Positions 24,903 through 46,558 of a stretch of DNA of 64,000 nt are shown one piece after another. This DNA is from Candidatus Nomurabacteria bacterium. GTDB taxonomy: Bacteria; Patescibacteriota; Patescibacteriia; HK-STAS-PATE-3. A program made the position numbers and the translations under genes. Position 1 is the stretch's first letter, and the number at the start of each line of letters is the position of its first letter. The notes beneath the pieces were generated by a model. It ran no database searches, had not been told where the DNA came from, and worked only from the letters and a program-made list of their open reading frames with translations. Location of the stretch: assembly GCA_023898465.1 (NCBI GenBank), contig CP060223.1, positions 96,001-160,000 on the forward strand. Direction: 5' to 3'.

Positions 24903-25207
24903 ACGAATTATTTTTTTCTTATCGTGCCGTTCAGTAAGGCGTGAAATTGCACACCGCCTTTGTATTTCTTTATTCTTAACTCTGCTTTTCGTGCCTCGCT
25001 CCTTGTTCCATACTTTTCCGCATATATTATTTCCAGGGAACTCCAGACTTCGTTGATCGAACACGAGACGCATTGTGCTCAATTATTCTTGTGGATATAT
25101 TTTCACAATGGCCTATATAATACCTTCCTGTTTTTTCGCTTTGTAGAATATATGTTATAAACATACATTTTGCTTTCTGCCGCGGAGCGGCATCCCGCCC
25201 CGCGGGA

Positions 25208-25242
25208 CAAGCAAGCGCACTAGGCCACTATGCGACCTCTCC
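25208..25242 (-). repeat. 35 nt direct copy of the 5' half of tRNA-Ser, a pseudo-tRNA fragment.
   Basis: caagcaagcgcactaggccactatgcgacctctcc is identical to 24868-24902. The match continues upstream (ttgctttc) across a 30 nt GC-rich hairpin insertion at 25178-25207. Confidence 0.8.
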
Positions 25243-25346
25243 AGGTTGCGTGATTTGTAACGGGACAATCCTAGCGAAAAATTACCTATTTGGCAAGGCG
25301 AAAATACAGAGTAAAATTCGACAAACAGGTCCCGCTCGGCTAGGAT

Positions 25347-25922
25347 ATGGATATGCGCGTAGAAGCAAGTCCAGAAACCCAGGTAGTAAAAAAGAAAAAA
25401 GGGAGCTGGCGGAAACTCGTCCTTTCGCTCTTTGTGTTGACCGCTCTAGTAGTAATCGTGCAGCAAGCTTTTGACACTTCCACATCCTCAAGCGAAACAG
25501 ACACTCAGGAGCAAAACGTCTTAGGTGAGAGTACGAGTCAACCCGAAAATACTGTTCGAGTACGTTTGAGTGAGGAAGAATTGAATAACCGTTTACAAGA
25601 ACAGATTGGACAGAGTAGTCAGGGAAATACTTTAGCTGATGCACATATAGAGATCCAAGACAGCCTCGGCATTTTACGTATGCGCTGGGAGGGAGGACAA
25701 ACTCTCGAAGCGCAAATTGTGGTAGGTGATTCTCAAAAGGAATTAGTTGTACGTAATGCGAGAGTTGAGGGTGCCGGAATTCTCAATAGCGTTTTTGAAA
25801 CGCTGGCCAAAAGTACGATTGATCAAGCATTGAAGATTATTACCAATAAGCAGGGAGATCGATTGGTTTCTCTGGCGATGGTGGATGGTGCACTTCACGC
25901 GTATTATCGCTTAGCACAATAA
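25347..25922 (+). CDS. Hypothetical membrane-anchored protein.
   Basis: Lys-rich N-terminus followed by a TM helix. Confidence 0.4.
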   Translation: MDMRVEASPETQVVKKKKGSWRKLVLSLFVLTALVVIVQQAFDTSTSSSETDTQEQNVLGESTSQPENTVRVRLSEEELNNRLQEQIGQSSQGNTLADAHIEIQDSLGILRMRWEGGQTLEAQIVVGDSQKELVVRNARVEGAGILNSVFETLAKSTIDQALKIITNKQGDRLVSLAMVDGALHAYYRLAQ

Positions 25923-26185
25923 TGCCTCGCACATTGCCGAAGGACGTGTTGCTAGAAATCCCCGGTGTAGGAAAAAGTATTGCAAAGGATTTACACGAAT
26001 TAAACATCCATAAGGTAGAAGATTTGCGCCGGCAAAACCCGGAACAACTTTATGAAAACCTGCAGCGTCAGCAAGGAGCGCCAATTGATCGTTGTATACT
26101 CTATGTATTTCGTTGTGCAGTGTATTACGCGAGTCATACTCGTCACGATGTAGAAAAATTGAAATGGTGGAATTGGAAAGATTAA
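25922..26185 (+). CDS. Helix-hairpin-helix protein, Cdd1-like (PF11731-type).
   Basis: LLEIPGVGKSIAKDL...NPEQLYENL pattern. Confidence 0.5.
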   Translation: MPRTLPKDVLLEIPGVGKSIAKDLHELNIHKVEDLRRQNPEQLYENLQRQQGAPIDRCILYVFRCAVYYASHTRHDVEKLKWWNWKD

Positions 26186-26189
26186 AAAT

Positions 26190-27395
26190 ATGTGGAAGCA
26201 TTCATTTATAGTTATCCTTACCTGCCTCTTCTTCCTTTTCGGTGTAGGTTTTGCAATACAAACTTCTACCTTTAACGCCCCAGATGAGCGAGGGCATTAT
26301 TTATATGTGCAATACGTGCATGAGACCGGGTTATTGCCGGTGCTCTCGGCTGATTCACCAAATAAGGAGGCGCATCAACCACCCTTGTACTATTGGCTGA
26401 GTCAGCCAGTCTTTTCTTTGACCCAGCATTGGTCAGAGCGGGCGCAGGTACTAGCACTTCGTTTTTGGTCGCTTATACTCAGTAGTGGTGTGGTCTTGCT
26501 GACCTATGCGGCAATTCGCCGACTCCTCCCAACCCGTCGACTCCTTGCCTACCTCGCCACGGTTTTTGTGGCCCTAAATCCTCAGTTTCTTTTCATGAGC
26601 AGCGTGATTAATAATGATGCGCTCACAAATCTTCTGGGTGCAGCATGGGTCTTTGCCATTGTTTTTCTTTTTACGCGACAAAGTGTTTTATTAAAAAAAT
26701 CTACCAATGTTTGGATGGTGCTTTTAGCTGCGGCAATGTTTCTCACAAAAGCATCACTCTGGCCATTAGTCGCGCTTCTTGGTCTTGTGCATTTTTTCCG
26801 AGTGCCCATCTCAGAGCGTAAACGTGTAGCGTTGTATTGGATACCCGCCCTTCTGATTATGCTTTGGTGGCTGACTCGAAATACTCTTATCTACGGTGAT
26901 CCGACGGTACATCAAGTGCAGCATGATTTGTGGTATGCTGAGCAGCATCGAAATTTTCTTAGCCCTTCAGGTGTATGGCAGTGGCTAGTTACCCTGGTTG
27001 AAAGTTTTTGGGCGAGATTTGCCTATTTTAATATTGCCCTGCCTGGGATTTTTTATCTTTTTATCAAGCTAGGTCTCATGATGGGGGCGATTGGTTTTCT
27101 GCGCTACACCTTCCAGCATTGGAGTGAAAAATGGCAGCCTCGAATGCAAGCGATCTGGATACTTTGTTTGGGCGCGCTGAGTGTTTTTGTCGGTGTGTTC
27201 TGGTATAGCTTGAGTTTTTATCAGCCACAAGGGCGTTATCTCTTTGCTGTCCTGCCCGTTTTTAGTGCGCTGCTTAGTCTGGGTCTCCTGGTATGGTTGC
27301 CAAAAAAACTTCAATGGTTAGTATTTGCTCTTATCGTTGTTGCTCTCGTCCTGGCTGATGTGAAGAGCTATGCATTGCTCAGTAAGTACGGATAA
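26190..27395 (+). CDS. Membrane glycosyltransferase, GT39/GT83-like (PMT/ArnT family).
   Basis: Multi-TM protein. NAPDERGHYLYVQYV...PPLYYWL matches the family's conserved N-terminal loop. Confidence 0.6.
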   Translation: MWKHSFIVILTCLFFLFGVGFAIQTSTFNAPDERGHYLYVQYVHETGLLPVLSADSPNKEAHQPPLYYWLSQPVFSLTQHWSERAQVLALRFWSLILSSGVVLLTYAAIRRLLPTRRLLAYLATVFVALNPQFLFMSSVINNDALTNLLGAAWVFAIVFLFTRQSVLLKKSTNVWMVLLAAAMFLTKASLWPLVALLGLVHFFRVPISERKRVALYWIPALLIMLWWLTRNTLIYGDPTVHQVQHDLWYAEQHRNFLSPSGVWQWLVTLVESFWARFAYFNIALPGIFYLFIKLGLMMGAIGFLRYTFQHWSEKWQPRMQAIWILCLGALSVFVGVFWYSLSFYQPQGRYLFAVLPVFSALLSLGLLVWLPKKLQWLVFALIVVALVLADVKSYALLSKYG

Positions 27396-27525
27396 ACTTC
27401 GAAACCTCAATACCGAAATACTAAGCAAATTCTAAATAAGAACTTCAAAATACGCCAAATTACTTTGGGAAGCATGTTTAGATATAGTTTTTGTTTCGAG
27501 ATTCGAACTTAGAATTTAGGAATTA

Positions 27526-28661
27526 TTATTCGCATTCCGGATCGTCGTAGCGATGTACGATTCCATGAATAACTTGTCCCAGCATGAGTAGGCTAAGTGC
27601 GAGAAGGAAGAAAGTGGCACCAAGTCGTGGAGCAAAAGTTCCTACGAGGATAATAAGCAGTGCGCCACCAAAGCGAATGCCGCGATCGCTTTTTTTATGC
27701 TCAACATCGTGTTGGTCAGGCACCAGAGTCAGCTCTAGTAAGCCATTAAAGAGGAGAGTAATAGCTGCTCCGCCACAGAGGAGCCATATGATTTCGCTGC
27801 GCAGGAGATTAGCCCCATTTGCAATGATGGCTAACATGGCAGCTCCAATTGCGCCAGTGCCGATATGCAAGGGCAAATGTCCATAGCCCCAAGCTGCCTT
27901 AACCCATTCGTTCTGTCTCACTCGGCGTACCGGTATGGTATTGAAGTAGAGCCACCATAATCCAAATGCGAGTAACATTCCTAGACCGCCAATGAGGAGA
28001 GAGTGAGTAGTCATAACAGGAAGGTCAGCAATTTTTTCTGCTGTTGCGATAATGGTCTCACCTAGGACAATAATCACTAATAAACCAAAACGTTCAGGTA
28101 GATGAGAGTTGCTGAAGCGTGGAAGCTTGCTTTGCTCTCCAAAGGTAAGCGCTGGAGTAAACAGGTCGATAGCGAGTCCAAGTCCTCGTAATATAAGTTG
28201 GAGTGGGGCTGGGACAAAGAGTGAAATGGTCCACAGGATAACTGAGGTGCTGAAGCCAATGGAATAGATACCGGTAGTTTTTCGGATTTCTGGATTATGA
28301 TATCCGCCCCGTATCCAAAGGAAGATGAGTACAAGTCGGGCAAGAATATATGAGACCCCGAAGCCAAATGCGGTACTATCGAGTCCATCGCGTGCAAATA
28401 TTGCCAATCCAGCGATCGGCAGCATCATCAGGAAGGTCAGGAGCTTGTGACTCACATCGTCTGTCTCAAAGCGATCGTTGTAGAGCGTGTGTCCAATCCA
28501 AACCCACCAGATTGGGATAAAGAGTAAAACAAAGCGAAGTACGCCGCTCCAGTCTGGCTGGTCAGCGAGAGCATGGATAAGCTCTCTGATTGCCGCAACA
28601 AAAACAAGGTCAAAAAATAGCTCTAATCACGTTGCTCGACGCTCTTGATTTTCATCTTCAT
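27526..28661 (-). pseudogene. ltrA: Low-temperature-requirement LtrA-family membrane protein gene with an apparent 1-nt frameshift near its 5' end.
   Basis: The long frame LELFFDLVFVAAI...FIPIWWVWIGHTLYNDRFETDD...ERFGLLVIIVLGE carries LtrA signatures. It has no in-frame start before an upstream TGA at 28627-28629. The predicted N-terminus MKMKIKSVEQRD sits in the -1 frame starting at 28661. Confidence 0.55.
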
Positions 28662-28807
28662 CACGCCGTAAAACCGGATGTTGCCACCAGTGTTTGTGAG
28701 GATTCCATTCGTGTCCCGTATGCATTGCGCGCCGATTGTAGCACATATTTTTAAGCTTGTCATGGCTGGCCTGAGCGATAAAAATGTGTTAAAGTTGTGA
28801 TGAAAAT

Positions 28808-29194
28808 ATGCCACGAGTCATTCATTTTGAAATTCATGCCAGTGATCCAGAACGAGCTGCGCAGTTTTATGCACGCGTTTTTGATTGGGATATACAGAAG
28901 TGGGATGGTCCAGAAGAGTACTGGCTAGTAAACACCGGTGCAGATACGCAAGCCGGTATCAATGGCGCAATTTTTAGGCGTCAGGGTGAATTAAGCCAGC
29001 ATGATGCGGTGATCGCCTTTGTGTGTACTATTGATGTGCCGAATGTTGATGCGTATATAGAGAAAGTGAAGCAACATGGTGGACATGTCGAATTGCAAAA
29101 AATGGCCGTGCCCGGAGTGGGCTGGATGGCATATTGCAAAGACACCGAAGGAAATATTTTTGGGATGATGCAAGCTGACCCGGAGGCAGTTTAA
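28808..29194 (+). CDS. VOC/glyoxalase-family protein.
   Basis: 128 aa, beta-alpha-beta(3)-like. FYARVFDW...GNIFG. Confidence 0.7.
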   Translation: MPRVIHFEIHASDPERAAQFYARVFDWDIQKWDGPEEYWLVNTGADTQAGINGAIFRRQGELSQHDAVIAFVCTIDVPNVDAYIEKVKQHGGHVELQKMAVPGVGWMAYCKDTEGNIFGMMQADPEAV

Positions 29195-29195
29195 G

Positions 29196-29774
29196 ATGCA
29201 ACACGAACTACTCGATATTATCAATGAAGAGGACGAGGTAATAGGCCAAGCAACTCGGCAAGAGTTGTATGATAAGGGCCTTACTTGTCGCATCGTGCAT
29301 GTGTTTGTGCAAAATAGCCAAGGCCAGTTTGCCATTCAGAAACGCAGTGAAGTGGTGAGCTTTCTCCCGGGCCACTGGAGCTCCTCGGCCAGTGGACATG
29401 TCAAAAAAGGCGAGTCATATGACGAAGCGGCTGCACGTGAACTGCAAGAAGAGTTAGGCATTGAAGCACCTTTAGAAAATGCCTTAACAACTTGGTACAC
29501 CGTGCCAGACCGAAATATCCGCCGTCGTATTGGCGTTTACCTTGCTAAGCACGAGGGACCTTTTGAGCTTGAGGCAATTGAAGTGGCTGAAGTTGTTTGG
29601 CATGAGCCTGAAGAAGTCTTAGCAATGGCCAAGAAAGGCGAGCCATTCCAACCGGAATTGGCAATTAGGAAATCATATTCACCCTATCGAAAGAGTATCT
29701 GGTCATTACATTGCTTTATTGCTCGTAATTGTCAGAAGGCAGGCGAACCACAATTGGACGGGGGAGAAAAATAG
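29196..29774 (+). CDS. NUDIX hydrolase. Its last ~39 aa are specified by the adjacent AT-rich insertion.
   Basis: Nudix box GHVKKGESYDEAAARELQEELGI. Nucleotide identity with the copy at 30595-31061 ends at 29659. Confidence 0.8.
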   Translation: MQHELLDIINEEDEVIGQATRQELYDKGLTCRIVHVFVQNSQGQFAIQKRSEVVSFLPGHWSSSASGHVKKGESYDEAAARELQEELGIEAPLENALTTWYTVPDRNIRRRIGVYLAKHEGPFELEAIEVAEVVWHEPEEVLAMAKKGEPFQPELAIRKSYSPYRKSIWSLHCFIARNCQKAGEPQLDGGEK

Positions 29775-30596
29775 AAGACCAGCTTATTACTTTTGAAGAC
29801 TTCTCGCGTGTAATGATTATGTTTACTGAGCGCGAGACTTGTTCCAGGTTTTACCAGATGCGACTGGATCCACAGAAGAAGAAAGAATTCTATAAGATTC
29901 TTTTAATACCTAAAATGGAAGAATCCGGAAATATTAAAATATTCGGCATGGATTGGCTGAAATTTGCACGATCTTTTAATTTTCACTTGCAGGGGCTGGG
30001 TGTGATGTTATTTTACAATCAAAAACTCATAAAGATAAACGATTGAATATTGATTTTTATCTCCATCAATTCTTTTTAACATTAAACATTCATTAGAGTT
30101 GTTTGTAAAAATGACAATGGAGATATTAGATCAAAAAGTTAAAAGACAACACAATACATTAAGCAATTTAATAATAGTCGAAGGTGTTATAAGGAAGTTG
30201 GATAATATCGTTTGTAGATATTTGGCTTCAAAGCAGACTAAGTAAATCAAAAGGTAAGTATGATACGTATTATCTAGACACATGGAGGAACGGATGGAGG
30301 GAAATTCGAGTGATGGTGGAGTACTACAGCAATTTAAACTTTTGAAAGATCGTGGACTTTCTCAAAAATTATTAAAAGATACTGAGAACACCTTATTTCG
30401 ATATCCTGATTCCAGCATGATAAAGAAGTTGAAGTATAATGAGGTTTTTGCAAAAATTAATATTCTTGACGTTAAAAACTTTAAGAAAGACGTTAATAAT
30501 TCCGGAACACTATTTACAGATCTTTTTCTCATACTTTTATTTTTTCGATACGAGATAGTCGAAGGTGTTGATTAGAGAGTTATTATATAAATATGT

Positions 30597-31110
30597 ATGC
30601 AACATGAACTACTCGATATTATCAACGAAAGGACGAAATGTCAGGCCAAACAACTCGGCAAGAGTTGTATGATAAGGAGCCTTACTTGTCGTATCGTGCA
30701 TGTGTTTGTGCAAAATAGCCAAGGCCAGTTTGCCATTCAGAAACGCAGTGAAGTGGTGAGAGCTTTCTCCCGGGCCACTGGAGCTCCTCGGCCAGTGGAC
30801 AGTCAAAAAGGCGAGTCATATGACGATGCGGCTGCACGTGGAGTGCAAGAAAGAGCTAGGCATTGAAGCACCTTTAGAAAATGCCTTAACAACTTGGTAC
30901 ACCGTGCCAGATCGAGATATTCGTCGTCGTATTGGTGTTTATCTTGCCAAGCACGAGGGACCATTTGAGCTTGAGGCAATTGAAGTGGCCGAAGTTGTTT
31001 GGCATAAGCCCGAAGAAGTCTTAGCAATGGCTAAGAAAGGTGAGCCATTCCAACCAGAATTTCTCGACATGTTTAAGCTTGTTATTGAGAGGGACACCAA
31101 TGAAAATTAA
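30597..31110 (+). pseudogene. Frameshifted second copy of the NUDIX gene.
   Basis: About 93% nt identity to 29194-29659 with several indels (+1, +2, -2), which splits it into ORFs 30597-30866 and 30820-31110. Confidence 0.8.
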
Positions 31111-31750
31111 AAAGTATCTTCATTCCTGTCTCCTCATTGAAGAAAATGGAAAGCGCTTGTTGATTGATCCGGGCAAGTTTTCTTTTGGAGATGAGGGGAT
31201 AAAAGCTGAAGAAGTAGGTGCAGTGGATGCAATACTAATCACGCACGAACATCAGGATCATTACTTTCCCGAAGCACTACGCGCTTTTAAAAACCTAGGC
31301 GATTGCGAGATTATCACCCATGCAGCAATTGGTAAGCTGCTTGATGAGGAAGGAATCGCTCATACACTTCTACAGGATGGTGAAGAAAGGGAGGTGGTTG
31401 GTTTTCATGTAAAGGGCTTTGCACGAAGTCACGGTCCTCTACCTTTACCTGTGCCAGACAACTTTGCATATCTTATTAATAGTAGATTATTGCATCCAGG
31501 TGATTCCTATGAGGCAAGTGATATTAGCTGCGAAGTGCTCGCCTTACCAGTCGTCGCGCCCTGGGCCAAGCTGACCGAAACAGTGGAATATGCAAAAGCG
31601 GTTGGCGCAAAAACAGTTATTCCAATTCACGACGCCTTTCTCAAAGACTTTATGCGTCACGGCGTGTACTACAATGTAGCAAAGATGAAGCTTGAGGAGC
31701 AGCATATTGCTTTTCAGGTTTTAGAAAGCGGCGACGAATTCGAGATCTAA
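31100..31750 (+). CDS. MBL-fold metallo-hydrolase.
   Basis: ILITHEHQDHYF (HxHxDH) motif. Confidence 0.75.
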   Translation: MKIKKYLHSCLLIEENGKRLLIDPGKFSFGDEGIKAEEVGAVDAILITHEHQDHYFPEALRAFKNLGDCEIITHAAIGKLLDEEGIAHTLLQDGEEREVVGFHVKGFARSHGPLPLPVPDNFAYLINSRLLHPGDSYEASDISCEVLALPVVAPWAKLTETVEYAKAVGAKTVIPIHDAFLKDFMRHGVYYNVAKMKLEEQHIAFQVLESGDEFEI

Positions 31751-32043
31751 AATGAGTTAAAAAGACGGCAGTTGAGACAAGCCCAACTGCCGCGTGGACG
31801 CCTTCTCTGTGTTTCAGAGATGGTGTGGACCTGTTTGGTCCAACTCGACTGTAGTACAGTTGAGGGGATTTGTATAGCGGCATTTTTATTAGAAAAAGTC
31901 CCATACCACACTGGAATGTAAGGTATCTTTTTAAGCGGGACAGGAAACGCTGACATTTTTGCTTGACGACTTCCTTCTTAAGGAGTATGTAAAGAAGGCT
32001 AGTTTTTTGTTCTTTGCATTTCAGAGTAACAGGAGGTTGGGGA

Positions 32044-32369
32044 TGCATATATGTGGGGTACGTCCGGCAGCTCAAGTTGTGAGAGAGGCTCCTGGAGCAC
32101 GAGTGCCTGTTGGTCGGAGCGTTTACTACTATTCTCAGCTGAAAGTAGCGGCGCTTTCCTTGGATCCAGGTGCTATGGTCAAGGTTGGTGATGTGATCGA
32201 ATTCGAGGCGAGCAGGAGACGAAGGTTGTGTATTGTGGTTGGAGAAATGGAGGTCAACGGAAGACGTGTCGAGGAAGTTTCAGGCCCTTGCGAGGTCGGT
32301 GTCCAGGTCGGAAGGTGGATTCGCTGGGGTCAGCATCCGATTTACCGTATCGATGCTCCCTCCGCATGA
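32044..32369 (+). CDS. Hypothetical small high-GC protein.
   Basis: CAGGAGG RBS 7 nt upstream of ATG. 58% GC. No confident family. Confidence 0.35.
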
Positions 32370-32446
32370 AGCGCGTACGAGCCGTCAGCATTTTGTTGGC
32401 GGCTTTTTCATTGACTAAGCTTAGGGAAAACTGCTAGCGTGCACAT

Positions 32447-34192
32447 ATGGAAATTTTCTTTCGTGCCCTCAAACAATACAAAAAGATTGCTATTAGCGCG
32501 CTTGTGCTTGCAGCTATTAATCAGGTTTTTTCCTTACTTGATCCCCAGATATTCAGAATCCTAGTTGATCGCTATGCCAGTCGACCAGAGGAATATAGTT
32601 CACCTGACTTTTTCCGAGGAGCTTTCCTGTGGGCGCTCGGCATTATCGGCGTTGCGTTTATTTCTCTAGTCGCGAGAAGCTTCCAGGATTATTACGTCAA
32701 TGTTATTAGTCAGAGAGTAAGTACCAATCTTTACGCACAGAGTGTAGGATATGCCTTTGCATTGCCTTTTGCCGTGTTTGAGGACCAGCGTTCCGGTGAG
32801 CTGCTTCAAAAGATGCAGAAGGCAAAGACCGACATTGAAAAGGTGATTCGTAGTTTTGTAAATGTGGTTTTCTTGTCAGTCATCGGAATGCTCTTTGTAC
32901 TTGTCTATGCCTTTTTTGTGCATTGGCTGGTTGGTTTGGTCTATACGCTCATTATTCCGACGATTGCTTTCTCTGTGTTAACGCTTAGTCGTCGTATTAA
33001 GAAGGCGCAGTCAGCTATTGTGACAGAGACCGCCGCATTATCTGGGTCCACCACGGAAACATTGCGCAATGTTGAGTTAGTAAAGAGCTTGGGATTGGAA
33101 GAGCAAGAAGTGAGTCGATTGAATCAAGTGAATGATCGCATTCTTGATTTGGAGCTTAAAAAAGTGCGCCTCGTCCGAGCGCTGAGTTTTGTGCAAGGCA
33201 CTTTATTGAATGCTTTACGATCCGGACTCATCCTGCTTATGCTTTGGCTTATCTACCAAGGCAACATTTCCATTGGCGAATTTCTAAGTTTATTTATTTA
33301 TTCCTTCTTTGTATTTCAACCGTTGACTGAGCTTGGCACTGTTATAACTGATTTCCAAGAAGCTCGGGCCAGCAGTGAAAAGCTGCAGGAGATTCTAGCC
33401 ATGCCCGAGGCGCCTAAGCCCGAGCAGCCGGTTTCACTGAATGCGCTGCAGTCAATTATTTTTGACAATGTAGTATTTCAATATCAATCTAATAGCGTGA
33501 GTTCAGTCGAGCATATTCACGCGGAGGTTCACTCGGGTGAAACCATTGCTTTTGTCGGTCCGTCTGGCTCGGGTAAGACGACGCTCATGAAATTAGTCTT
33601 GGGTTTATACCAACCAAGCCAAGGACAACTTCGTTATAATGATATACCCGGATCGGCTATTCAGATTGATGAGCTGCGGAAGAAAATTGGTTTTGTCGGG
33701 CAGGAGACGCAACTTTTTGCCGGGACCATCCGTGAGAATTTGCAGTTTGTCCAGCCCGAGGCTGATGAGGTTACGTGTTTGGAGGCGCTTAAAAAAGCCG
33801 CGGCCATGAATATTATTGAGCGAGGCAAGCAAGGGCTAGACACAAAGATCGGCGAAGGTGGTTTGAAACTTTCCGGTGGCGAGCGTCAACGTCTAGCCAT
33901 TGCACGGGCACTGTTGCGTAATCCAGAGCTCCTCATTTTTGATGAAGCTACCAGCAGCCTTGATTCCCTGACTGAAAAAGAAATCACCCAGACTATCCAG
34001 GAGCTCGGAAAAGAAAATAATCAGCGCATGACTTTATTGATTGCGCATCGACTCTCAACAGTTGCTCACGCTGATCGCATTTATGTTTTAGAGAAGGGGA
34101 AGATTGTTGAGCAGGGTAAGCATGAGGAATTGGTCCAAGCTGGCGGATTGTATGCAGCGTTGTGGCGTCAGCAAAGCGGCGCGACTGAATAA
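32447..34192 (+). CDS. ABC transporter, fused permease and ATPase (type I exporter, MsbA-like).
   Basis: Six TM helices followed by Walker A GPSGSGKTT, signature LSGGERQRLAIARAL, and Walker B LLIFDEATSSLD. Confidence 0.9.
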   Translation: MEIFFRALKQYKKIAISALVLAAINQVFSLLDPQIFRILVDRYASRPEEYSSPDFFRGAFLWALGIIGVAFISLVARSFQDYYVNVISQRVSTNLYAQSVGYAFALPFAVFEDQRSGELLQKMQKAKTDIEKVIRSFVNVVFLSVIGMLFVLVYAFFVHWLVGLVYTLIIPTIAFSVLTLSRRIKKAQSAIVTETAALSGSTTETLRNVELVKSLGLEEQEVSRLNQVNDRILDLELKKVRLVRALSFVQGTLLNALRSGLILLMLWLIYQGNISIGEFLSLFIYSFFVFQPLTELGTVITDFQEARASSEKLQEILAMPEAPKPEQPVSLNALQSIIFDNVVFQYQSNSVSSVEHIHAEVHSGETIAFVGPSGSGKTTLMKLVLGLYQPSQGQLRYNDIPGSAIQIDELRKKIGFVGQETQLFAGTIRENLQFVQPEADEVTCLEALKKAAAMNIIERGKQGLDTKIGEGGLKLSGGERQRLAIARALLRNPELLIFDEATSSLDSLTEKEITQTIQELGKENNQRMTLLIAHRLSTVAHADRIYVLEKGKIVEQGKHEELVQAGGLYAALWRQQSGATE

Positions 34193-34907
34193 GCTTGCCT
34201 CACTATAGGTATCTTGCTAGGCTCTAGATACCGTTCTTTCGTATTGAGTGATGATCAGCTCAGATTCTGGCTTTCTTCCCCGAGCCGTTCAGAGTCAGCT
34301 TATCATTACTCATACCGCGCAGTCTCAACTTGCACCTCCTCATGCGGCTCCCGCCCATGTCGCAAGAACCAGACTGCGCGGTTTTTTCATACACCAAAGA
34401 AGAAGAGGCGGCTGAATCTAGGAGATCCAGCCGCCGAGAGAAGCTCGCACAGATCTGCGCGAGCGCCATTGTTCCCCGTACGTAGGGGAGTTAGGCGCTA
34501 TTGCAGAACCGACGAGCCAGTTTCGGGATCTTCATCGTGCGTCTCCTTGTGGATTGCATCGAGTCTTGTCCCTCGCTTTTGTTCAGAGAACGCAAGCGGT
34601 AGTGCCTAAGGTACACTGCATAAAAGTAGGTGTCAAGTGTGGGTGTGTTTCTTGACTACACCTCTTTTTTCAACTAGAGTAGCACAGCACATTAATCAAC
34701 GTGGGACTGCGTCATGGTGGAACGGGTGTTGAGTCCACTGCCGCCAGCTCAGCGCCTTGTTACGCAGTCCCACCCCTTTCCCGCCGCGCAGCTTGTTGTG
34801 AGTCTACCTACCGACACGCTCCTTAGACTCATGACACTGCGCGGCTTTTTCTTTTCCACTTGAATTATTGCGTCGGAGTGCTATACCAAAAGAGTTAGGA
34901 AAACATT

Positions 34908-35975
34908 ATGCGCCAAGTACTACTTCTCCTCACTTTGATTTTATTATGTACAGGAGGATTGTATCTAGCGAATACTGCGCAAGCCCAGGAAAAGCCCGAG
35001 CTGTTGTTTTTTTACGGCCAAGGTTGTCCGCACTGCGCTGTAGTTGAGCAATATATTGAGGATGAAAATCTTGACGAGCGTTTTCGTATTATAGCGAAAG
35101 AGGTGTATGGAGACCCGGAAAATGCTCGCGACCTTACCCAGCAGTTTCAAGTTTTTCACGTGCCAGAGTCAAAGCAAGGAGTTCCCTTTATGGTGCTTGG
35201 GGCTAAATATTATGTTGGGGACGTGTATATTATTGAGGCAATAGAAAACTATGCGGATTCGGAAATTATTCATACCGAAGCGCCGAATGTTGCTGAAGAG
35301 CAAGGAGACGATCAGCTTCATTTTTTTCCGGTAGTTGGCGCCGCCTTGGTTGATGCTATCAATCCATGCGCTTTTGCTGTTCTGATTATTCTTATGGCTA
35401 CAGTGATTGCCTCGCAAGACAGGCGACGAGCCTTGCTGGCTGGCTTAAGTTTTTCTTTCGCTATATTCCTTTCATATTTGGCAATGGGCTTTGGTCTGTA
35501 TTCAGCAATTGCCGCAGCCAGTGCGACGACTTGGGTCACAAAGCTGGCCGCCGGGATGGCAATCTTGCTCGGGTTATTCAATCTCAAAGATGCGCTTTGG
35601 TATGGAAAAGGTGTGTTGATGGAAGTGCCAATGTCATGGCGACCTCGGATGAAAAAATTAATTCGCTCAGTCACGCATCCGCTGAGCGCCTTTGGAGCAG
35701 GCATTTTGGTAAGCTTATTTCTCTTACCCTGCACCTCTGGTCCCTACATTGTTATTATTGGTATGTTGAGCTCTACGGAATCAATAAACGCGGCAGTCCT
35801 TTGGTTGATACTCTACAATGTTATTTTTATCTTACCGATGTTGGGATTAACCTTAGCAGTATATTTCGGATTACAACCGAGTCGGCTTGAAGAAATACGG
35901 CAAAGTCGCCTGCGCCTACTTCATGCCATTGCCGGAATCATTTTACTAAGCTTAGGTTTGTATTTGTTGTTGTAG
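34908..35975 (+). CDS. Thioredoxin-like domain fused to a CcdA/DsbD-type membrane thiol-disulfide transporter.
   Basis: Signal peptide, then a YGQGCPHCAV CxxC motif, then TM domain with ..INPCAF.. and ..LLPCTSGP.. conserved Cys pairs of CcdA/DsbD. Confidence 0.75.
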   Translation: MRQVLLLLTLILLCTGGLYLANTAQAQEKPELLFFYGQGCPHCAVVEQYIEDENLDERFRIIAKEVYGDPENARDLTQQFQVFHVPESKQGVPFMVLGAKYYVGDVYIIEAIENYADSEIIHTEAPNVAEEQGDDQLHFFPVVGAALVDAINPCAFAVLIILMATVIASQDRRRALLAGLSFSFAIFLSYLAMGFGLYSAIAAASATTWVTKLAAGMAILLGLFNLKDALWYGKGVLMEVPMSWRPRMKKLIRSVTHPLSAFGAGILVSLFLLPCTSGPYIVIIGMLSSTESINAAVLWLILYNVIFILPMLGLTLAVYFGLQPSRLEEIRQSRLRLLHAIAGIILLSLGLYLLL

Positions 35976-36023
35976 ATAAACCAAAACCGACCTGAGCGGC
36001 CGGCTTTAGTTTTGACGCGAGAC

Positions 36024-36212
36024 TTAGTAGAGCCCAGCCAAATGGAGCAGGAGGATGAAGACTCCGATAGAGATCAGAAAGAGTCCGAGCCCCGTGGCTG
36101 ATCCCCAACTGTACCAGGAGCCCCAGGCGCGCCAGGGGAGTTGCGGGTAAGCCTCTCGGTAGCGCTTCCAGTCCTCGAGTTGCTCTTCTTGTTTTTTATC
36201 CATAGTTGCCAA
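36024..36212 (-). CDS. Small membrane protein, hypothetical.
   Basis: 62 aa ORF with a C-terminal TM helix. Weak evidence. Confidence 0.25.
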   Translation of the reverse strand: MATMDKKQEEQLEDWKRYREAYPQLPWRAWGSWYSWGSATGLGLFLISIGVFILLLHLAGLY

Positions 36213-36393
36213 TGTTTGCTTGATAAGTCGACCTTTGGCAACCCATCTGTGCGGAATGATGTGCCCGTCTGTATGTTCAGGGTTGGAGAACGCGGGCGTG
36301 GTGTCAGTTCGCGCATTCGGAGTATAGCGGATGGCAATATTCTGTCAAAAAAGGATAGTAGCGCAGAAGGGGAAATAAGGCTATGCTTCAATC

Positions 36394-37086
36394 ATGAGCT
36401 ACTATGCTGAGCAAAAAAAGGCTTTTGAAAGGGTAGAAAATGCTGTAAAAAAAGGAAAGGCAGAAGGATCGGTAGTTGACCCGGTACAAGACTATGTTCA
36501 GGATAAGCGCTTATCGCTTACGAGCTTGAGTTTTTTGCCTCCGGCAGTGCAGCAAAAAATCTATCATACACTCATTATTCCGCTTCAGGTGGTAGACTCG
36601 CAGCAGGCGTATTTTGAAGCACGTAGTCTCCATGTCACGGTGCAAAATATTCGGACAGTCGCTGATCCGCCTCTGTATACTTCAGCTGACATAGAAAAAG
36701 CACGCGAGATATTTCATAACATAGTTCCTAAATACCCATTGCTAAAATGTCGACTTGAAGGTTTAAATATCTTTCCTGCAAGCGTTGCGATCCGTGCATT
36801 CGTGAGCGAGGAGTTTCGGGATCTGGTGCTTGAGCTGCGCGAAGCTCTACGACGTAATGGTGTGCCAGATAATAAAGTGTATGCTTCTGGAAATGTTATT
36901 TTTGGTAATGTTACTTTTGTTCGTTTTACGACTACTCCTAACAAGGATTTTTTTGCCAAAGTCGAGGAGTTAAAAGAGTGTTCATTTGGCGAAGTGCATT
37001 TAGAAAAAGTTTCCCTCATGGAGGTCAATGCGCTGTGTCATCCGAGCAGTATGCGGGTCATTGATACTTATTCTTTCCAGAAATAA
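36394..37086 (+). CDS. Hypothetical protein, possibly 2H-phosphoesterase (LigT)-like.
   Basis: One HxTx motif (SLHVTVQN). The second motif is not clear. Confidence 0.35.
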   Translation: MSYYAEQKKAFERVENAVKKGKAEGSVVDPVQDYVQDKRLSLTSLSFLPPAVQQKIYHTLIIPLQVVDSQQAYFEARSLHVTVQNIRTVADPPLYTSADIEKAREIFHNIVPKYPLLKCRLEGLNIFPASVAIRAFVSEEFRDLVLELREALRRNGVPDNKVYASGNVIFGNVTFVRFTTTPNKDFFAKVEELKECSFGEVHLEKVSLMEVNALCHPSSMRVIDTYSFQK

Positions 37087-37090
37087 ATAC

Positions 37091-37624
37091 ATGCTATATA
37101 TCACATACTTTGTTCATGGCACCACAACTGACAATGAGCATGATCTTTGTATGGGTTGGGCGCCGGGTCAACTGTCTGAATTAGGGAAGCGGCAAGCAAA
37201 AGATCTTGGAGAGCAGGTTGACGCGTCACAGTTTGCAGTCATGTTTTGTTCTGATTTGCAACGGGCAGTTGATTCAGCTGAGCTAGGTTTTGGAGGGATG
37301 TTGAAGATAATTCAAGATCAGCGTTTGCGTGAATGCAACTATGGTGACTTAACACAGAGGTCTGAGGATCTTGTGGACTACGCCAAGCATATTGCAGAAC
37401 CATTTCCAAATGGTGAGAGCTTACATGACGTTGAGCAGCGGATGCGGGAATTTTTAGAAATGCTTAACACTGGCTATGCAGATAAACATGTGGCCCTTAT
37501 GGCCCACAAGGCACCTCAACTTGCGCTCGAAGTGCTCCTGAATGGAAAAACGTGGGAGCAAGCGATTACGGAAGACTGGCGTAAAAAGAAAGCTTGGCAA
37601 CCGGGGTGGAGCTATTTGTTTTAG
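37091..37624 (+). CDS. Histidine phosphatase family protein (phosphoglycerate-mutase-like).
   Basis: N-terminal ITYFVHGTTTDNE (RHG-like motif) plus a downstream His. Confidence 0.6.
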   Translation: MLYITYFVHGTTTDNEHDLCMGWAPGQLSELGKRQAKDLGEQVDASQFAVMFCSDLQRAVDSAELGFGGMLKIIQDQRLRECNYGDLTQRSEDLVDYAKHIAEPFPNGESLHDVEQRMREFLEMLNTGYADKHVALMAHKAPQLALEVLLNGKTWEQAITEDWRKKKAWQPGWSYLF

Positions 37625-37672
37625 TTGCTATTTTTTTCATAGAGCGCATAATAACATAAGGAGGAAAATTAT

Positions 37673-38026
37673 ATGGAAAAAATATTTGGGGTCGACCCGA
37701 AAAGTAAGTTCACAGCAGAAGATGTTCGAGACGCTATTGTGGAGTGTTTCTATCAAGCCCATAAAGAGGTGGCTGAGAAGCAATTCCAATTTGCAGGCGA
37801 GGATTTTGGTGAAGAAGCATTGAAGAAGATGACCTCTAATTTCACTGAAGGCATAGTACGCCGCGCGTTTACAGAAACAAGTGGTGACTTTTCCCAGCCT
37901 ACTAAGGCATCTCTACAGAAGGCCATAGATTATATGAAGGAGTTTGCTATGGAATTTCGCACTAAGGAAATTATTGACGCGAATTATCAACAGATTAAAA
38001 GCTTGATAGACGGGTTGTCGGAGTAG
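37673..38026 (+). CDS. Hypothetical protein.
   Basis: 117 aa ORF preceded by a GGAGG RBS. Confidence 0.4.
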   Translation: MEKIFGVDPKSKFTAEDVRDAIVECFYQAHKEVAEKQFQFAGEDFGEEALKKMTSNFTEGIVRRAFTETSGDFSQPTKASLQKAIDYMKEFAMEFRTKEIIDANYQQIKSLIDGLSE

Positions 38027-38091
38027 CCTTGGGAGCTTGCGAAAAAAGGAAAAACAAGTATACTTCGCATACGTAGTGTTCTGATTTTGCT

Positions 38092-39075
38092 ATGCCATAT
38101 TTTTTCCGTGGACCATTTCTCATAATGATTGCGGCTATGCTGTGGGCCTTAGACGGTTTACTGCGCTCACAGCTTACTGCGTCAATTCCCTCCACCGCCA
38201 TTGTTTTTTATGAGCACCTGGTAGGCTTTGTCCTTCTTCTCCCTTTTTTCTGGAGAGCTCTACCTAAAGTAAAAACATTGCATCGAGCTGATTGGTTTCG
38301 ACTCATTTTACTTACCATAGTGAGTAGTGTGCTTGGCACTATTCTTTTTACCGAGGCATTTGCCCGGAGCGCTGTTTCTTATGACTTCATCACTCCAACC
38401 TTACTGCAAAAACTCCAACCAGTTTTTGTGGTGCTACTCTCAGCTATTCTCTTACGCGAGCGAGTGACATGGCGTTTCATTGGTTTAGCCATACTCGCTT
38501 TAGTAGGTAGCTATATGGTTACTTTTGGATCCGAATCTGTTTCGCTAAGCTGGAGCGGTAAAGAGATAGTGTTTCTCTTATCTATCGGCGCTGCCTTAGC
38601 CTGGGGATCGGGTACTATTTTGAGCAAGAAGATTTTAGAGAAGCTTTCATTTAGCGAGGCGACTTCCTTGCGTTTCTTATTAGCCATTCCTATTAGTGCT
38701 ATCGCGATGCTAACACTTAATCATGGCTATAGTCCGGTGGAAATTTCCGGGGCTTCTTGGCTCCGCTTCGTCGCTATTGGTTTGACTACTGGAGCAGCGG
38801 CGATTCTTATCTACTACCGTGGCTTGCGAATTACACCAGCGAAAGTCTCCACTTTTGCTGAGTTGATGTTTCCCGTCACAAGTATTCTCATAGCCGTGAC
38901 AGCGCTTAATCCCTTTGGCGCGCCGCAGCCCATTAGCTTTGGCCAGGGCCTAGGTATTCTTATCCTCATCGTTTCCATTTTACTTATTGGAACGAGTGAG
39001 CTACCCGCGCCTAAAGTAAAAGAGAGTGAAGCATATGAAGGAGCTACCCAGTCCGAGCCAGTATCTACAACATAA
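38092..39075 (+). CDS. EamA/DMT-family transporter.
   Basis: Ten TM helices in two EamA-like halves. Confidence 0.7.
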   Translation: MPYFFRGPFLIMIAAMLWALDGLLRSQLTASIPSTAIVFYEHLVGFVLLLPFFWRALPKVKTLHRADWFRLILLTIVSSVLGTILFTEAFARSAVSYDFITPTLLQKLQPVFVVLLSAILLRERVTWRFIGLAILALVGSYMVTFGSESVSLSWSGKEIVFLLSIGAALAWGSGTILSKKILEKLSFSEATSLRFLLAIPISAIAMLTLNHGYSPVEISGASWLRFVAIGLTTGAAAILIYYRGLRITPAKVSTFAELMFPVTSILIAVTALNPFGAPQPISFGQGLGILILIVSILLIGTSELPAPKVKESEAYEGATQSEPVSTT

Positions 39076-40078
39076 ACTTGAAACCTGCGGTCAGTATACA
39101 TTGACCGAGTCTGATCACGCTCTTCTCAAAGAAAAAGGCATGGAGGAGTTTTTGTACGCAAAACTTACTTCCAAGAAATTTCGGAAGTGGAGAATAACTC
39201 AAAAAGCAGAAGACCGCATCCGTAATGCACTTTCTGTCACGGTGCCAAAGAATAAGCCACTACAGTTACGTTTTCCCTTTGGGGCATATAAACTTTGGCG
39301 CTTGCCATCAAGTCCAGAAGTGGACTGGGCTGAGTTTTTTACCTTGGCGTATTTCTCAGAGTTCCTCGCACCAATTTTAGCCGCATATCAACCGGGGGTG
39401 GAGTTGTATTTTTCTTCAGATGAGGTAATTGTCGAACCTATGAACAATGTATCTCGAGAAGAAACAGATGCATACCAAGAATCATTCAGGCGTTTGTTGG
39501 CAGAATTTAAAAAGTATTGGCCAAATAATTTCATTGTTGATATTCGACCTGTGCGCAATCTCTATAACAATGCAGAAGAAATTTTCAATGAAGCTCAGCA
39601 AATGATTCCGATAATTGAAGAAAGATATGCGGCCATGTCAAAAGAGGAAGTCGCTTCTGCTGAAAAAACCTCAGCCATGAATATTCGCTGGGATGGAGTT
39701 CAGGATTGGCAGAAGCTTACTGAGGATGAAAAGAAGGAAAAAATTCACTACGGCACAATATTACACGATGCCTATTGCGCGATTAGCAAACGACAACAAT
39801 TCATGCGTAGTGACGATACGATTTTACTTTTTGTAAATAGACAAGTTTCTGATGGTATTCCACTAGGTAGCACTAAGAATTCAATTGCGAAGTTTTGGCC
39901 GGGCTACGGAGTGTTGGAACAAAAAGAAGCAGGCTATATAGAGAGAGTGCTGACCCCGCAACAACTTACTTCATTGCAGCATGAGAAAGCTCAAATTGAA
40001 GCAATCGATTGGCTGCCAATGAAAAACTTTCACGAGATCCAAGTGTATCCTGAGCTGAATTTTACGCTTACTAAATAG
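39035..40078 (+). CDS. Hypothetical cytoplasmic protein, paralog A of a tandem pair.
   Basis: The N-terminal ~45 aa and the C-terminal 25 aa (QIEAIDWLPMKNFHEIQVYPELNF) are nearly identical to those of 40141-41181. Confidence 0.55.
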   Translation: MKELPSPSQYLQHKLETCGQYTLTESDHALLKEKGMEEFLYAKLTSKKFRKWRITQKAEDRIRNALSVTVPKNKPLQLRFPFGAYKLWRLPSSPEVDWAEFFTLAYFSEFLAPILAAYQPGVELYFSSDEVIVEPMNNVSREETDAYQESFRRLLAEFKKYWPNNFIVDIRPVRNLYNNAEEIFNEAQQMIPIIEERYAAMSKEEVASAEKTSAMNIRWDGVQDWQKLTEDEKKEKIHYGTILHDAYCAISKRQQFMRSDDTILLFVNRQVSDGIPLGSTKNSIAKFWPGYGVLEQKEAGYIERVLTPQQLTSLQHEKAQIEAIDWLPMKNFHEIQVYPELNFTLTK

Positions 40079-40140
40079 TTCTAGACAGGATCCATCAGAA
40101 CACTTAGTATGCACTAGGAGAACTTTCTTATTGCAGTCGT

Positions 40141-41181
40141 ATGTCACATTTTAGTCCGAGTCAGTATTTACAACATAGACTCGAAAGTTGTGGTCACTAC
40201 GAGTTGACCGCGTCAGACCATGTTCTACTCAAAGAAAAAGGCATGGAAGAGTTCTTGTACGCCAAGCTTACTTCCAAGAAATTTCGGAAGTGGAGAATTC
40301 AAGAAAGTTACCAAAAAGAGATTCGTGAACAGATTCGCTATTGTGTAGAAAAAAATATTCCAATAGAGCCAACTTGGTTTTTTGGTGGATATAAATTATG
40401 GAGCTTACCCGGCTCGCCTGAACCAAACTGGGCTGAGTTTTTTACTATCGCATATTTTCTACAATTTATTTCTCCAATCGCGGCGGCTTATTCTCCCGGT
40501 GTGACTTTCAAATTTTGGGTTGCTCATGCTTCAATTATGCTGCAGCAAAGCAATATACCCATTAAAGAGTGTATAAAATATAGAGAGGAATTTAATCGAT
40601 TGCTTTCCTTTTTTAGAAAGTACCTTCCCTCAAATATTGTTGTAGAGCTTCATGACTATTCTGAACTTTATCCAGATCAAAACGAATACGAGCAAGAATT
40701 AGAGCAATGTATCCTAAATACAGAAAGAAAATATCACGAAGAATGGACTGAGGATAGAAAAAGAATTAAGAGAACAACTTCAGAATTAAATATACAGTGG
40801 TCTGGAGCAGAGGATTGGACCAAGTTGGGTGAAAGTGAAAGAGAAGAAAAGATTTTTCGTGGACCATTGGTTCATGATGGGTATTGTGCTTTATCAAGAG
40901 TGAACGAAGCATTACGCGGGTCAGGTAAACTTGACTTGAGTGCTACGCCTTTGCCTTCAGGATCAATTCCAGTTGGCACAAGTGCAAGTTCCGTGACTAA
41001 ATTCTGGACCGGAGTTGGTGTGCTTGAAAAACATGATAGTCGCTATGTGGAGCGAATTTTATCCCCTCAGCAATGGAATGCTGTTCAGGGTCTATCTGTT
41101 CAAATTGAAGCAATCGATTGGCTGCCAATGAAAAACTTTCACGAGATCCAAGTGTATCCTGAGCTGAATTTTTCTCGCTAG
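40141..41181 (+). CDS. Hypothetical cytoplasmic protein, paralog B of a tandem pair.
   Basis: See paralog A. The middle region is divergent. Confidence 0.55.
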   Translation: MSHFSPSQYLQHRLESCGHYELTASDHVLLKEKGMEEFLYAKLTSKKFRKWRIQESYQKEIREQIRYCVEKNIPIEPTWFFGGYKLWSLPGSPEPNWAEFFTIAYFLQFISPIAAAYSPGVTFKFWVAHASIMLQQSNIPIKECIKYREEFNRLLSFFRKYLPSNIVVELHDYSELYPDQNEYEQELEQCILNTERKYHEEWTEDRKRIKRTTSELNIQWSGAEDWTKLGESEREEKIFRGPLVHDGYCALSRVNEALRGSGKLDLSATPLPSGSIPVGTSASSVTKFWTGVGVLEKHDSRYVERILSPQQWNAVQGLSVQIEAIDWLPMKNFHEIQVYPELNFSR

Positions 41182-41237
41182 ATAAGACTGGACAATTTTA
41201 TCCTCTCTACGTACTATGCAAGTAGTCCGTCTTCAGA

Positions 41238-41966
41238 ATGGCTGTACACAATATTAAGGGGCATAGCATGTTTTCTCGTAATATCTTGATCGCCCTTTCT
41301 CAACCTGAGGATGGGGACATGCGGGCGCAAGCGTCCGATGGAAACGGCCTAGAACGCCGTAGGATTTTTTTGGAGTCCGAGGGCTTTAGGTCTGATCAGG
41401 CTGTCTACGCTGGACTTGATCATGGCACGAATGTGATTGCAGTCCGCGGGACAGACGCTGGTCAAACTGTTCCAGACGTGGACGGTTTAGTAACGAACGA
41501 AGCAGGTCTAGTCCTGGGTCTGACCGTAGCTGATTGTTTGCCAGTTTATTTGTATGACCCAAGGACCGAGGCGATTGGACTCCTCCATGCCGGGTGGCGC
41601 GGCTTGGAGCAAGGTGTGCTGAGGCAGGGGATTGAACGAATGCAGCAAAGCTTCCGAGTGCACCCAGAGGATGTATTCGCAGCAATTGGTCCGAGTATCC
41701 GATCCTGCCACTATCAAGTAGGCGAGGAAGTGGCGAGACGATTTCGGGCACGCTATTCACTAGCTTTGGAACAGCGGGGACTCGAAACAAGACTGGATCT
41801 TACCAGGGTTGCTCGTATGCAGCTCGGTGAGGTAGGAGTCATTGCGCGTCACATCGAGGTTCATCCTCATTGCACCTACTGTCGGCCGGGTTTGTACTTT
41901 TCTCGTCGGAGGCAGGGCACAGGCTTTGGTCTGATGCTTGCTACAATCGCACGCTTACCAAGTTAG
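41238..41966 (+). CDS. PgeF/YfiH-family (DUF152, laccase-domain, purine-nucleoside-phosphorylase-like) protein.
   Basis: ADCLPVYLYD...GLLHAGWRGL motif. Local GC about 57%. Confidence 0.75.
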   Translation: MAVHNIKGHSMFSRNILIALSQPEDGDMRAQASDGNGLERRRIFLESEGFRSDQAVYAGLDHGTNVIAVRGTDAGQTVPDVDGLVTNEAGLVLGLTVADCLPVYLYDPRTEAIGLLHAGWRGLEQGVLRQGIERMQQSFRVHPEDVFAAIGPSIRSCHYQVGEEVARRFRARYSLALEQRGLETRLDLTRVARMQLGEVGVIARHIEVHPHCTYCRPGLYFSRRRQGTGFGLMLATIARLPS

Positions 41967-42188
41967 TCCACCTCAGGTAAAAGCAATCCTTCGGGATTGC
42001 TTTTCGCTAATCCTAGCAGAATTTTTTTGGCGTCTTTTCCATTTTGCTCTTTTATTTTTGCACTCTCTTGACAAAGTTTCGTACCGTAGAGGGGCTGTGG
42101 ATGATTTTACCCCTATAAACATTGGCGGAAATTAACTTTTCGGTTATACTATCTCAAGAACTTTCGATAATTAATTTAAGGAGATGCT

Positions 42189-42470
42189 ATGGCAAAAATG
42201 ACCAAATCTCAACTCCTCACCATGTTGGCTGAAAAGAGCAACATGTCAAAGAAGGATGTTGGCGAGTTTCTCGACATGCTGGCCCAGATGGCCTATGACG
42301 AGACCAAGCGAAATGGCGAGTTTACCCTCCCAGGTCTTGGTAAGCTGGTGAAGAAGCACCGTGCTGCTCGTTCCGGTCGTAACCCTGCTACTGGCGAAAC
42401 GATCCAGATCCCGGCCAAGACCGTGGTGAAGTTCCGTGTTGCCAAGGCAGCCAAAGAAGCAATTCTGTAA
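42189..42470 (+). CDS. DNA-binding protein HU.
   Basis: 93 aa, GFGKF-arm-like region RNPATGETIQIPAKTVVKF. Confidence 0.9.
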   Translation: MAKMTKSQLLTMLAEKSNMSKKDVGEFLDMLAQMAYDETKRNGEFTLPGLGKLVKKHRAARSGRNPATGETIQIPAKTVVKFRVAKAAKEAIL

Positions 42471-42495
42471 TTTCAACAAGATAGTTTCTGATCAA

Positions 42496-42519
42496 GATCC
42501 CCGCGAGGGGATTTTGGTT
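42496..42519 (+). terminator. Rho-independent terminator after the HU gene.
   Basis: gatcccc-gcga-ggggat followed by TTTTGGTT. Confidence 0.65.
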
Positions 42520-42533
42520 ATGTAGAATAAACT

Positions 42534-42561
42534 TGATACAAAGGAATTTTTGTGGTATACT
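42534..42561 (+). promoter_or_regulatory. Sigma70 promoter with an extended -10.
   Basis: TTGATA, 16 nt spacer, TGgTATACT. Confidence 0.55.
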
Positions 42562-42659
42562 TTATGTGAAATAAAAATATGCGGGGGATTTGCAGCTAAC
42601 AATCAAAACTTCCGAACTCACCAAATGGTGGGGTTTTCGTTCTGTGATAGTAATTTTTT

Positions 42660-46412: not shown

Positions 46413-46558
46413 ACAGGGTAAAACTAAGGAATGAAGCAGTAGGAGTATAGCAGATACTTCCCACCTAATCGAGCGAAAGCAGCACTTTCACTAGTAAAGT
46501 AAGGCTTTTTCTGCTATACTACTTATATCAATCATTGATTTTAAAGGTAAGGAACGAT

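Follow-up and report, generated by a model that had tools for sequence, protein, structure and literature searches.

The 715-bp gap at positions 34193-34907, which extends from the stop codon of an ABC exporter gene to the ATG of a gene for a thioredoxin/CcdA-like membrane protein, is best read from its sequence as an orphan cluster of terminators and candidate small RNAs. We tentatively favour the interpretation that it is non-coding DNA with signals that would act at the RNA level, organized in three modules on alternating strands. Two of these modules may encode divergent, lineage-specific structured small RNAs (a minus-strand RNA of ~205 nt and a plus-strand RNA of ~167 nt) with the inverted repeat T as a common control site, a narrower proposal that we consider possible and would not press. 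The window, i.e., the whole stretch of DNA that was analysed, comprises 64,000 nt of Candidatus Nomurabacteria bacterium, an uncultured member of the Patescibacteria (CPR) (GCA_023898465.1, CP060223.1 positions 96,001-160,000).

The products of the two flanking genes have consecutive NCBI protein accessions, and the gene calls of near-identical Logan contigs also leave 34193-34907 empty. The genome (locus tags H6760_*) belongs to an activated-sludge or enrichment community, and the organism is present in sequencing runs SRR12358675, SRR12358676 and SRR23493594. The original prediction had put the GC content of the gap at about 56%; we measure 51.6%, compared with a window mean of 47.9%, and within the gap 54% is reached only by 34400-34625. 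Its description as the largest non-coding stretch of the window is roughly right, but 29775-31039 (1.26 kb), which holds no intact gene and contains a broken NUDIX duplicate, is longer. This duplicate is the frameshifted second copy (30597-31110, 93-100% identical) of the NUDIX gene at 29196-29774, separated from it by an AT-rich insert (~30047-30575, 27-37% GC), and the pair has the appearance of a recent tandem duplication in which one of the copies is in decay. Two mutually adjacent paralogous genes at 39026-40078 and 40141-41181, which include stretches of 85-100% identity and one of which has a weak DIT1_PvcA match, are evidently a recent tandem duplication as well. Positions 1-9000 of the window, at ~57% GC against ~46% in the rest, may be of foreign composition or may hold a set of highly expressed genes.

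The gap and its neighbours contain the following features:

32447-34192, plus strand: ABC exporter gene (Pfam ABC_membrane and ABC_tran).
34208-34232, plus strand: small hairpin GGTATCT...AGATACC, the first 3′ UTR element directly past the ABC stop (-8.8 kcal/mol, no U-tract).
34245-34312, plus strand: hairpin A, a 68-nt rod with apical loop UCUUCCCC and three G-U pairs on this strand, part of the ABC 3′ UTR.
34314-34387, plus strand: hairpin B with T6, putative intrinsic terminator of the ABC gene, its U-tract on the plus strand only.
34394-34435, minus strand: hairpin C (34407-34435, 13 bp) followed by UCUUCUUCUUU, an intrinsic terminator predicted by the terminator scan and convergent with B.
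34398-34602, minus strand: putative small RNA of ~205 nt with F2 and F1 (5′), the ~80-nt rod D/E (34443-34518) and terminator C, its ends placed from motifs.
34443-34464, no strand assigned: palindrome D, 22 bp and near-perfect (GCTCGCACAGATCTGCGCGAGC), from the inverted-repeat search.
34608-34636, minus strand: promoter-like TTGACA (34636-34631), 17 nt, TACCTT (34613-34608), 9/12 matches.
34628-34671, no strand assigned: inverted repeat T, AGGTGTCAAG...CTTGACTACACCT with CTTTTTTC, a weak hairpin (-9 kcal/mol).
34652-34680, plus strand: promoter-like TTGACT-17-TAGAGT, 9/12 matches.
34687-34857, plus strand: putative small RNA of ~167 nt with hairpin G, a linker, hairpin H and a U-tract, suggested by fold z-scores and motifs.
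34860-34887, plus strand: promoter-like TTGAAT-16-TATACC, which, as read from the sequence, probably serves the CcdA-like gene alone.
34860-34907 (including this promoter), plus strand: putative short leader with AGGAAAA ahead of the CcdA-like ATG at 34908.
34908-35975, plus strand: gene for the thioredoxin/CcdA-like membrane protein (355 aa).

The earlier view of the gap as non-coding is borne out by ORF frameshifts between strains and by the absence of protein similarity. The 131-aa ORF at 34214-34609, previously judged implausible, indeed has no Pfam match and no real homolog. When 1.84 billion representative proteins were searched exhaustively with HMMER, a single one matched it, a ten-fold Calx-beta-type repeat protein, whose score is summed over repeats with 14-18 identities each and which we regard as a spurious compositional repeat artefact. 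The five other frames are full of stops, and every ORF that spans a between-strain indel is frameshifted in a 98%-identical strain. In the corresponding Logan contigs (L081-L083), the final 19 residues of the 131-aa ORF are different owing to one extra nucleotide after 34550, two ORFs of 41 and 49 aa are thrown out of frame by two extra nucleotides after 34815, and a 69-aa minus-strand ORF loses its ATG through the substitution A34468G.

All four inverted repeats described in the original prediction are present within a few bases of their predicted positions, and the gap contains four more structured elements than were listed there: hairpins A, C, D/E and F, the last of which consists of two small hairpins, F1 and F2. 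The 64-kb window has 24 perfect inverted repeats with stems of 9 bp or more and loops of up to 80 nt, and three of them sit in the gap. The arms of B (34314-34325 and 34371-34382) form 12 perfect base pairs around 45 nt and run into T6 at 34382-34387; those of G (34701-34712 and 34762-34773) form 12 perfect pairs around 49 nt; and those of H (34783-34791 and 34837-34845) form 9 perfect pairs around 45 nt, followed on the plus strand only by the U-tract TTTTTCTTTTCC (34846-34857). G and H are joined by the C/U-rich linker CCCCUUUCCC at 34773-34782. As had been noticed before, two of the hairpins have a core and a T-run in common: B and H share the 16-mer ACTGCGCGGYTTTTTC at 15/16 positions, which is too long for chance at that position and suggests a terminator duplication. 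The terminator-like match that the scanner reports inside the gap is hairpin C on the minus strand, with the U-rich tail UCUUCUUCUU, and C stands back to back with B at a distance of 24 nt. Palindrome D extends together with E into the D/E rod of ~76-80 nt, and it is possible that D serves as the base of this rod or as a protein-binding site. The arms of T (34628-34637 and 34651-34663) are followed by CTTTTTTC, with short T runs on both sides, and T could conceivably work as a bidirectional terminator or an operator.

A stable G+C-rich hairpin with an adjoining U-rich tract is found in B, H, C (on the minus strand) and T. B, H and C resemble intrinsic terminators in that this tract lies on one strand, and the opposed arrangement of B and C recalls the convergent terminator pairs at the ends of convergent units. 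In contrast to ordinary terminators of this genome, which measure ~30-42 nt (e.g., 3663-3704 and 11605-11633), B and H are rods of 63-69 nt with structured interiors; a further difference is the stacking of three terminator-like hairpins of the plus strand in one spacer. The earlier suggestion of stacked terminators fits B, H and possibly T, which are terminator-like on the plus strand, but does not extend to C, which would terminate transcription on the opposite strand.

Folding energies compared with dinucleotide shuffles show that the gap is strongly structured on both strands, with -281.5 kcal/mol and z = -7.8 on the plus strand and -279.0 kcal/mol and z = -9.5 on the minus strand. In a crude survey of the other gaps of the window, none fell below z = -6.1. 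When the gap is divided into three segments, the favoured strand alternates from plus to minus to plus:

34193-34388: z = -6.99 on the plus strand and -4.14 on the minus strand.
34398-34602: z = -7.06 on the minus strand (MFE frequency 0.16) and -4.01 on the plus strand.
34687-34853: z = -6.56 on the plus strand and -3.78 on the minus strand.

G-U pairs favour the same strands, namely the plus strand for hairpins A and G and the minus strand for C, D and the D/E rod, with B and E as exceptions. Hairpin A folds with -30.0 kcal/mol on the plus strand against -19.9 on the minus strand, and G with -38.8 against -34.1. For C, where a mismatch is closed by a G-U pair on the minus strand only, the values are -23.9 on the minus strand and -19.9 on the plus strand. 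D and the D/E rod are likewise stabler on the minus strand, E alone is slightly stabler on the plus strand, and B is 5 kcal/mol stabler on the minus strand.

Other well-folding spacers of the window are found at 2086-2287 (z = -5.7 on the plus strand), 3659-3974 (z = -6.1 on both strands) and 31751-31958 (z = -5.2 on both strands); the region 31740-32460, which spans the last of these, has no Rfam match. In the divergent spacer at 46444-46520, a stem of 11 bp encloses 55 nt (z = -3.1 on the minus strand). The 418-nt spacer past the CcdA-like gene (35976-36393) shows no unusual degree of structure (z = -1.6 and -0.4). On its minus strand, an ORF of ~60 aa with a hydrophobic C-terminus (~36024-36203), which probably encodes a missed small membrane protein, is preceded by the strong promoter TTGACA-16-TATACT at 36348 and followed by a terminator hairpin at ~35979-36010. 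This spacer is unstructured and probably protein-coding, and is therefore unrelated to the gap at 34193-34907.

The promoter-like sites at 34608-34636 and 34652-34680 follow the consensus TTGACA/TAnnnT, which also precedes several genes of the window (at 3782, 7944, 18620, 42533, 50525 and others) and is thus a fair promoter model for this organism. Their -10 boxes, TAGAGT and TACCTT, are weak compared with the usual TATACT of the genome. The arms of T coincide with the two -35 boxes, which lie 15 bp apart, and the two sites have the appearance of a divergent promoter pair.

On these grounds, we propose the following architecture. Module 1 (34193-34388, plus strand) would be the 3′ UTR of the ABC mRNA, with the rod-like hairpin A and an end at terminator B and its U6. 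Module 2 (from 34602 to ~34398, minus strand) would be an independent RNA of ~205 nt that starts from TTGACA-17-TACCTT and ends at terminator C. Module 3 (~34687-34857, plus strand) would be an independent RNA of ~167 nt from TTGACT-17-TAGAGT, in which hairpin G and an exposed C/U-rich linker precede terminator H. Both internal promoters would diverge from T, and the CcdA-like gene would start from its own promoter just past H. A minus-strand terminator such as C, placed between two plus-strand genes, would require a transcript that starts inside the gap. Against this layout speak the weak -10 boxes of both internal promoters, the slightly better fold of B on the minus strand and the possibility that T is a real plus-strand terminator, in which case a plus-strand transcript would cross the middle module. 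We infer that the modules are transcribed with these ends, and that the internal RNAs would act as stable regulators in trans. The original idea of one or more structured sRNAs is the reading that best accounts for the strand-specific z-scores, the U-tracts, the promoter-like boxes and the sparing of stems described below, and it stands as a proposal and not as a demonstration.

We compared the allele of the window with that of Logan contigs L081-L083, which derive from a strain with 99.7% identity over 7.9 kb. The alleles show 20 differences, every one of them within 32634-34824, and the flanks (1.3 kb on the upstream side and 4.3 kb on the downstream side) are free of them. The differences occur in small clusters (e.g., 32667/32674/32676 and 33985/33988), and the segment resembles a recombination tract that stems from a more divergent lineage. 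The ABC gene carries five synonymous (in 1746 nt) and three non-synonymous changes, and the gap carries 12 differences, i.e., 10 substitutions (1.4%) and two indels. The gap thus diverges at about the synonymous rate of the adjoining ABC gene, and any constraint on it must be limited to the stems. In line with such a constraint, only 3-4 of the 12 differences fall on positions with a pairing probability >0.5, where the expectation is 63% (plus-strand fold, p = 0.03; minus-strand fold, p = 0.009).

The effect is most pronounced in the minus-strand module, where none of the seven differences is paired in the minus-strand fold of the window allele (p = 0.0013), and two of the seven are paired in the plus-strand fold. 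The other allele of this module has the same architecture, with -92.6 compared with -90.0 kcal/mol, and the change at 34573 adds a pair. The fold of G-H is also kept in the other allele, its indels lying in the apical loop of H, and C34309T in hairpin A converts a G-C into a G-U pair. Clustering of proteins at 90% identity yields only the two known alleles, which are near-identical and show no compensatory pair between them. As the differences are few (12) and clustered, the sparing of stems is supportive rather than conclusive.

Searches for known RNAs agree with the original prediction, which had found no RNase P, tmRNA or SRP RNA signatures. The Infernal scan that it had suggested gave no Rfam family match in the gap: at the gathering threshold, Rfam 15 reports only two tRNAs in the whole window, and at E <= 10 the region 34100-35000 yields only two C/D-box snoRNA noise matches (17 and 12 bits), both on hairpin A. 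ARAGORN likewise finds no tmRNA and only two tRNAs, both elsewhere in the window. The same E-value scan recovers a sub-threshold AdoCbl riboswitch, which shows that the method works on this genome. This likely AdoCbl (cobalamin) riboswitch (16497-16650, plus strand) is a full-length match to RF01482 with 43.5 bits (cut-off 50) and a local E of 6e-7; it is preceded by TTGACA-17-TAGGCT at 16458 and followed by a gene at 16713-17555.

We also considered an integron attC site (CALIN), for which the R′′/R′ cores would stand at the base of an imperfect hairpin of 57-141 nt; no pair of R′′ RYYYAAC and R′ GTTRRRY is present on either strand, and no integrase is encoded by the neighbouring ORFs. Elsewhere in the window, the tRNA-Ser(GGA) gene at 24813-24902 (minus strand) has 36 nt of its upper-coordinate end (24868-24903) repeated exactly 340 nt away, at 25208-25243, and this repeat may be a scar left at an att site by an element that integrated there or was excised.

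Relatives of the gap could not be detected by blastn, six-frame tblastn and nhmmer in ~110 fetched loci (up to ~0.9 Mb) and the rest of the window, or by distant blastn in phage and plasmid collections. A metagenome search with the pattern CCGCGCAG-N40-50-CTGCGCGGYTTTTT, which represents the closing stem of B/H with its T-run, gave 18 matches, all of them unrelated long terminators or coding sequence; five (L087, L089, L091, L098 and L100) contain one unrelated element of ~68 nt. Patterns for the G stem and palindrome D in viral contigs gave chance matches in high-GC DNA or none. A search of genome contigs with the ABC protein found only relatives of <=62% identity. The spacers 3′ of ABC homologs are shorter than ~300 nt, an apparent case of 724 nt (L050) being really a gene, and CcdA relatives of 57-61% identity have other neighbours. 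As relatives at ~60% protein identity have neither the gap nor the synteny, the gap is lineage-specific as far as current data show, and its structure may have arisen as a lineage-specific accident.

Several other explanations of the gap have to be weighed against the three-module reading. The hairpins may be non-functional or merely insulating, that is, palindromic debris such as MITE/REP-like insertions or a duplicated terminator, which stops transcription between genes and gives rise to no functional RNA. Such an origin would account for the near-identity of the 3′ arm and tail of B and H, which suggests duplication, for the lack of the gap in all relatives, for its overall divergence near the synonymous rate and for the TA that is read on each side of hairpin A. 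However, neither the remaining 63 kb of the window nor the fetched loci (~0.9 Mb) contain a further copy of any of the hairpins; target-site duplications are absent from B, G and H, and the TA dinucleotides around A do not make a convincing one; and both the preference of G-U pairs for one strand and the scarcity of strain differences in stems point to selection at the RNA level. We rate this explanation as rather unlikely.

A lower probability is given to the view that G-H, or perhaps everything from T on, belongs to the CcdA-like gene as a 5′ leader that acts in cis. Transcription would then begin at the plus-strand promoter at 34652, and H would be a conditional terminator, similar to that of an attenuator or riboswitch, which controls read-through into the gene. 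Here, a promoter, a structured element, a terminator with a U-tract and a gene 50 nt downstream follow each other in the classic layout of riboswitch and attenuator leaders, and hairpin G folds better on the plus strand. Unlike such leaders, G-H has no riboswitch or leader match in Rfam even at E <= 10 and no convincing antiterminator, its best alternative pairing of G with H covering ~6 bp compared with stems of 12 and 9+13 bp. Moreover, the stretch from H to the ATG contains TTGAAT-16-TATACC, a plausible promoter in its own right, and in relatives the spacers ahead of the CcdA homologs are short and lack a leader of this kind.

The very strong z-scores of the whole gap on both strands, its slightly raised GC content and its length in a compact genome could also reflect one large structured non-coding RNA of ~600-700 nt, a new class on the scale of OLE, GOLLD and ROOL. 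This is improbable given that strong hairpins of the terminator type, with U-tracts, interrupt either strand and that the favoured strand changes between modules, and the gap has no notable long-range helices, no homolog and no Rfam match. Even less is to be said for a pseudogene, a form of the decayed gene that had also been suggested originally; it might be what is left of a second ABC half-transporter or of some gene that once lay between ABC and CcdA. The 131-aa ORF and a gap unusually long for this genome would fit a pseudogene. A clear match to one, which the original prediction had named as evidence against itself, was searched for and not found: six-frame tblastn of the gap against the surroundings of 80 ABC homologs gave a best E of 0.06, there is no Pfam match or other protein similarity in any frame, the only HMMER match is artefactual, the ORF is frameshifted between strains and the five remaining frames are rich in stops. 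The perfect stems of 9-12 bp also argue against decay, which is not expected to leave such stems, and we reject this reading.

We give the least credence to a TIGR-like array of stem-loop guide RNAs. TIGR arrays, which occur in CPR bacteria and phages, have edges of variable palindromic sequence that enclose two spacers and motifs resembling box C/D (Faure et al, 2025; PMC12045711); we took as their hallmarks an adjoining gene for a Nop-domain Tas protein and box C/D-like motifs flanking two 8-12-nt spacers per hairpin. The gap resembles these arrays in its tandem hairpins with variable palindromic closing stems (9-12 bp) and interiors of ~45 nt (45-49 nt), in its patescibacterial (CPR) host and in a weak C/D-box sRNA match over hairpin A (minus strand, E = 1.8). 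In contrast to them, it has no Nop-domain (Tas) protein nearby, as judged by a Pfam scan of 19 ORFs in 25347-44894, and no dual-spacer layout. Box C (RUGAUGA) occurs once, inside the stem of A, and B, G and H contain no C/D pair; the hairpin interiors are strongly base-paired, and no motif is common to the units.

Returning to the cluster of terminators and candidate small RNAs, its closest counterparts may be orphan trans-acting sRNAs. The Rsa- and RoxS-type orphan sRNAs of Firmicutes consist of two hairpins and a terminator. The internal modules of the gap are comparable in being intergenic, 165-205 nt long and equipped with a predicted promoter and intrinsic terminator of their own, and the plus strand exposes C/U-rich segments in the loop of A (UCUUCCCC) and in the G-H linker (CCCCUUUCCC). 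Anti-SD pairing by these segments is speculative, since many genes of the window lack a clear Shine-Dalgarno sequence. The gap differs from the Rsa- and RoxS-type sRNAs in having no sequence or Rfam relationship to them.

Patescibacteria have tiny genomes with short spacers. To our knowledge, no trans-acting regulatory RNA has been characterized in Patescibacteria (CPR), and we are aware of almost nothing on RNA-based regulation in this group. The gap described here is valued as a concrete, cheaply testable candidate from a single lineage and not as a discovery, and it would be a reasonable place to seek the first dedicated small RNAs of Patescibacteria.
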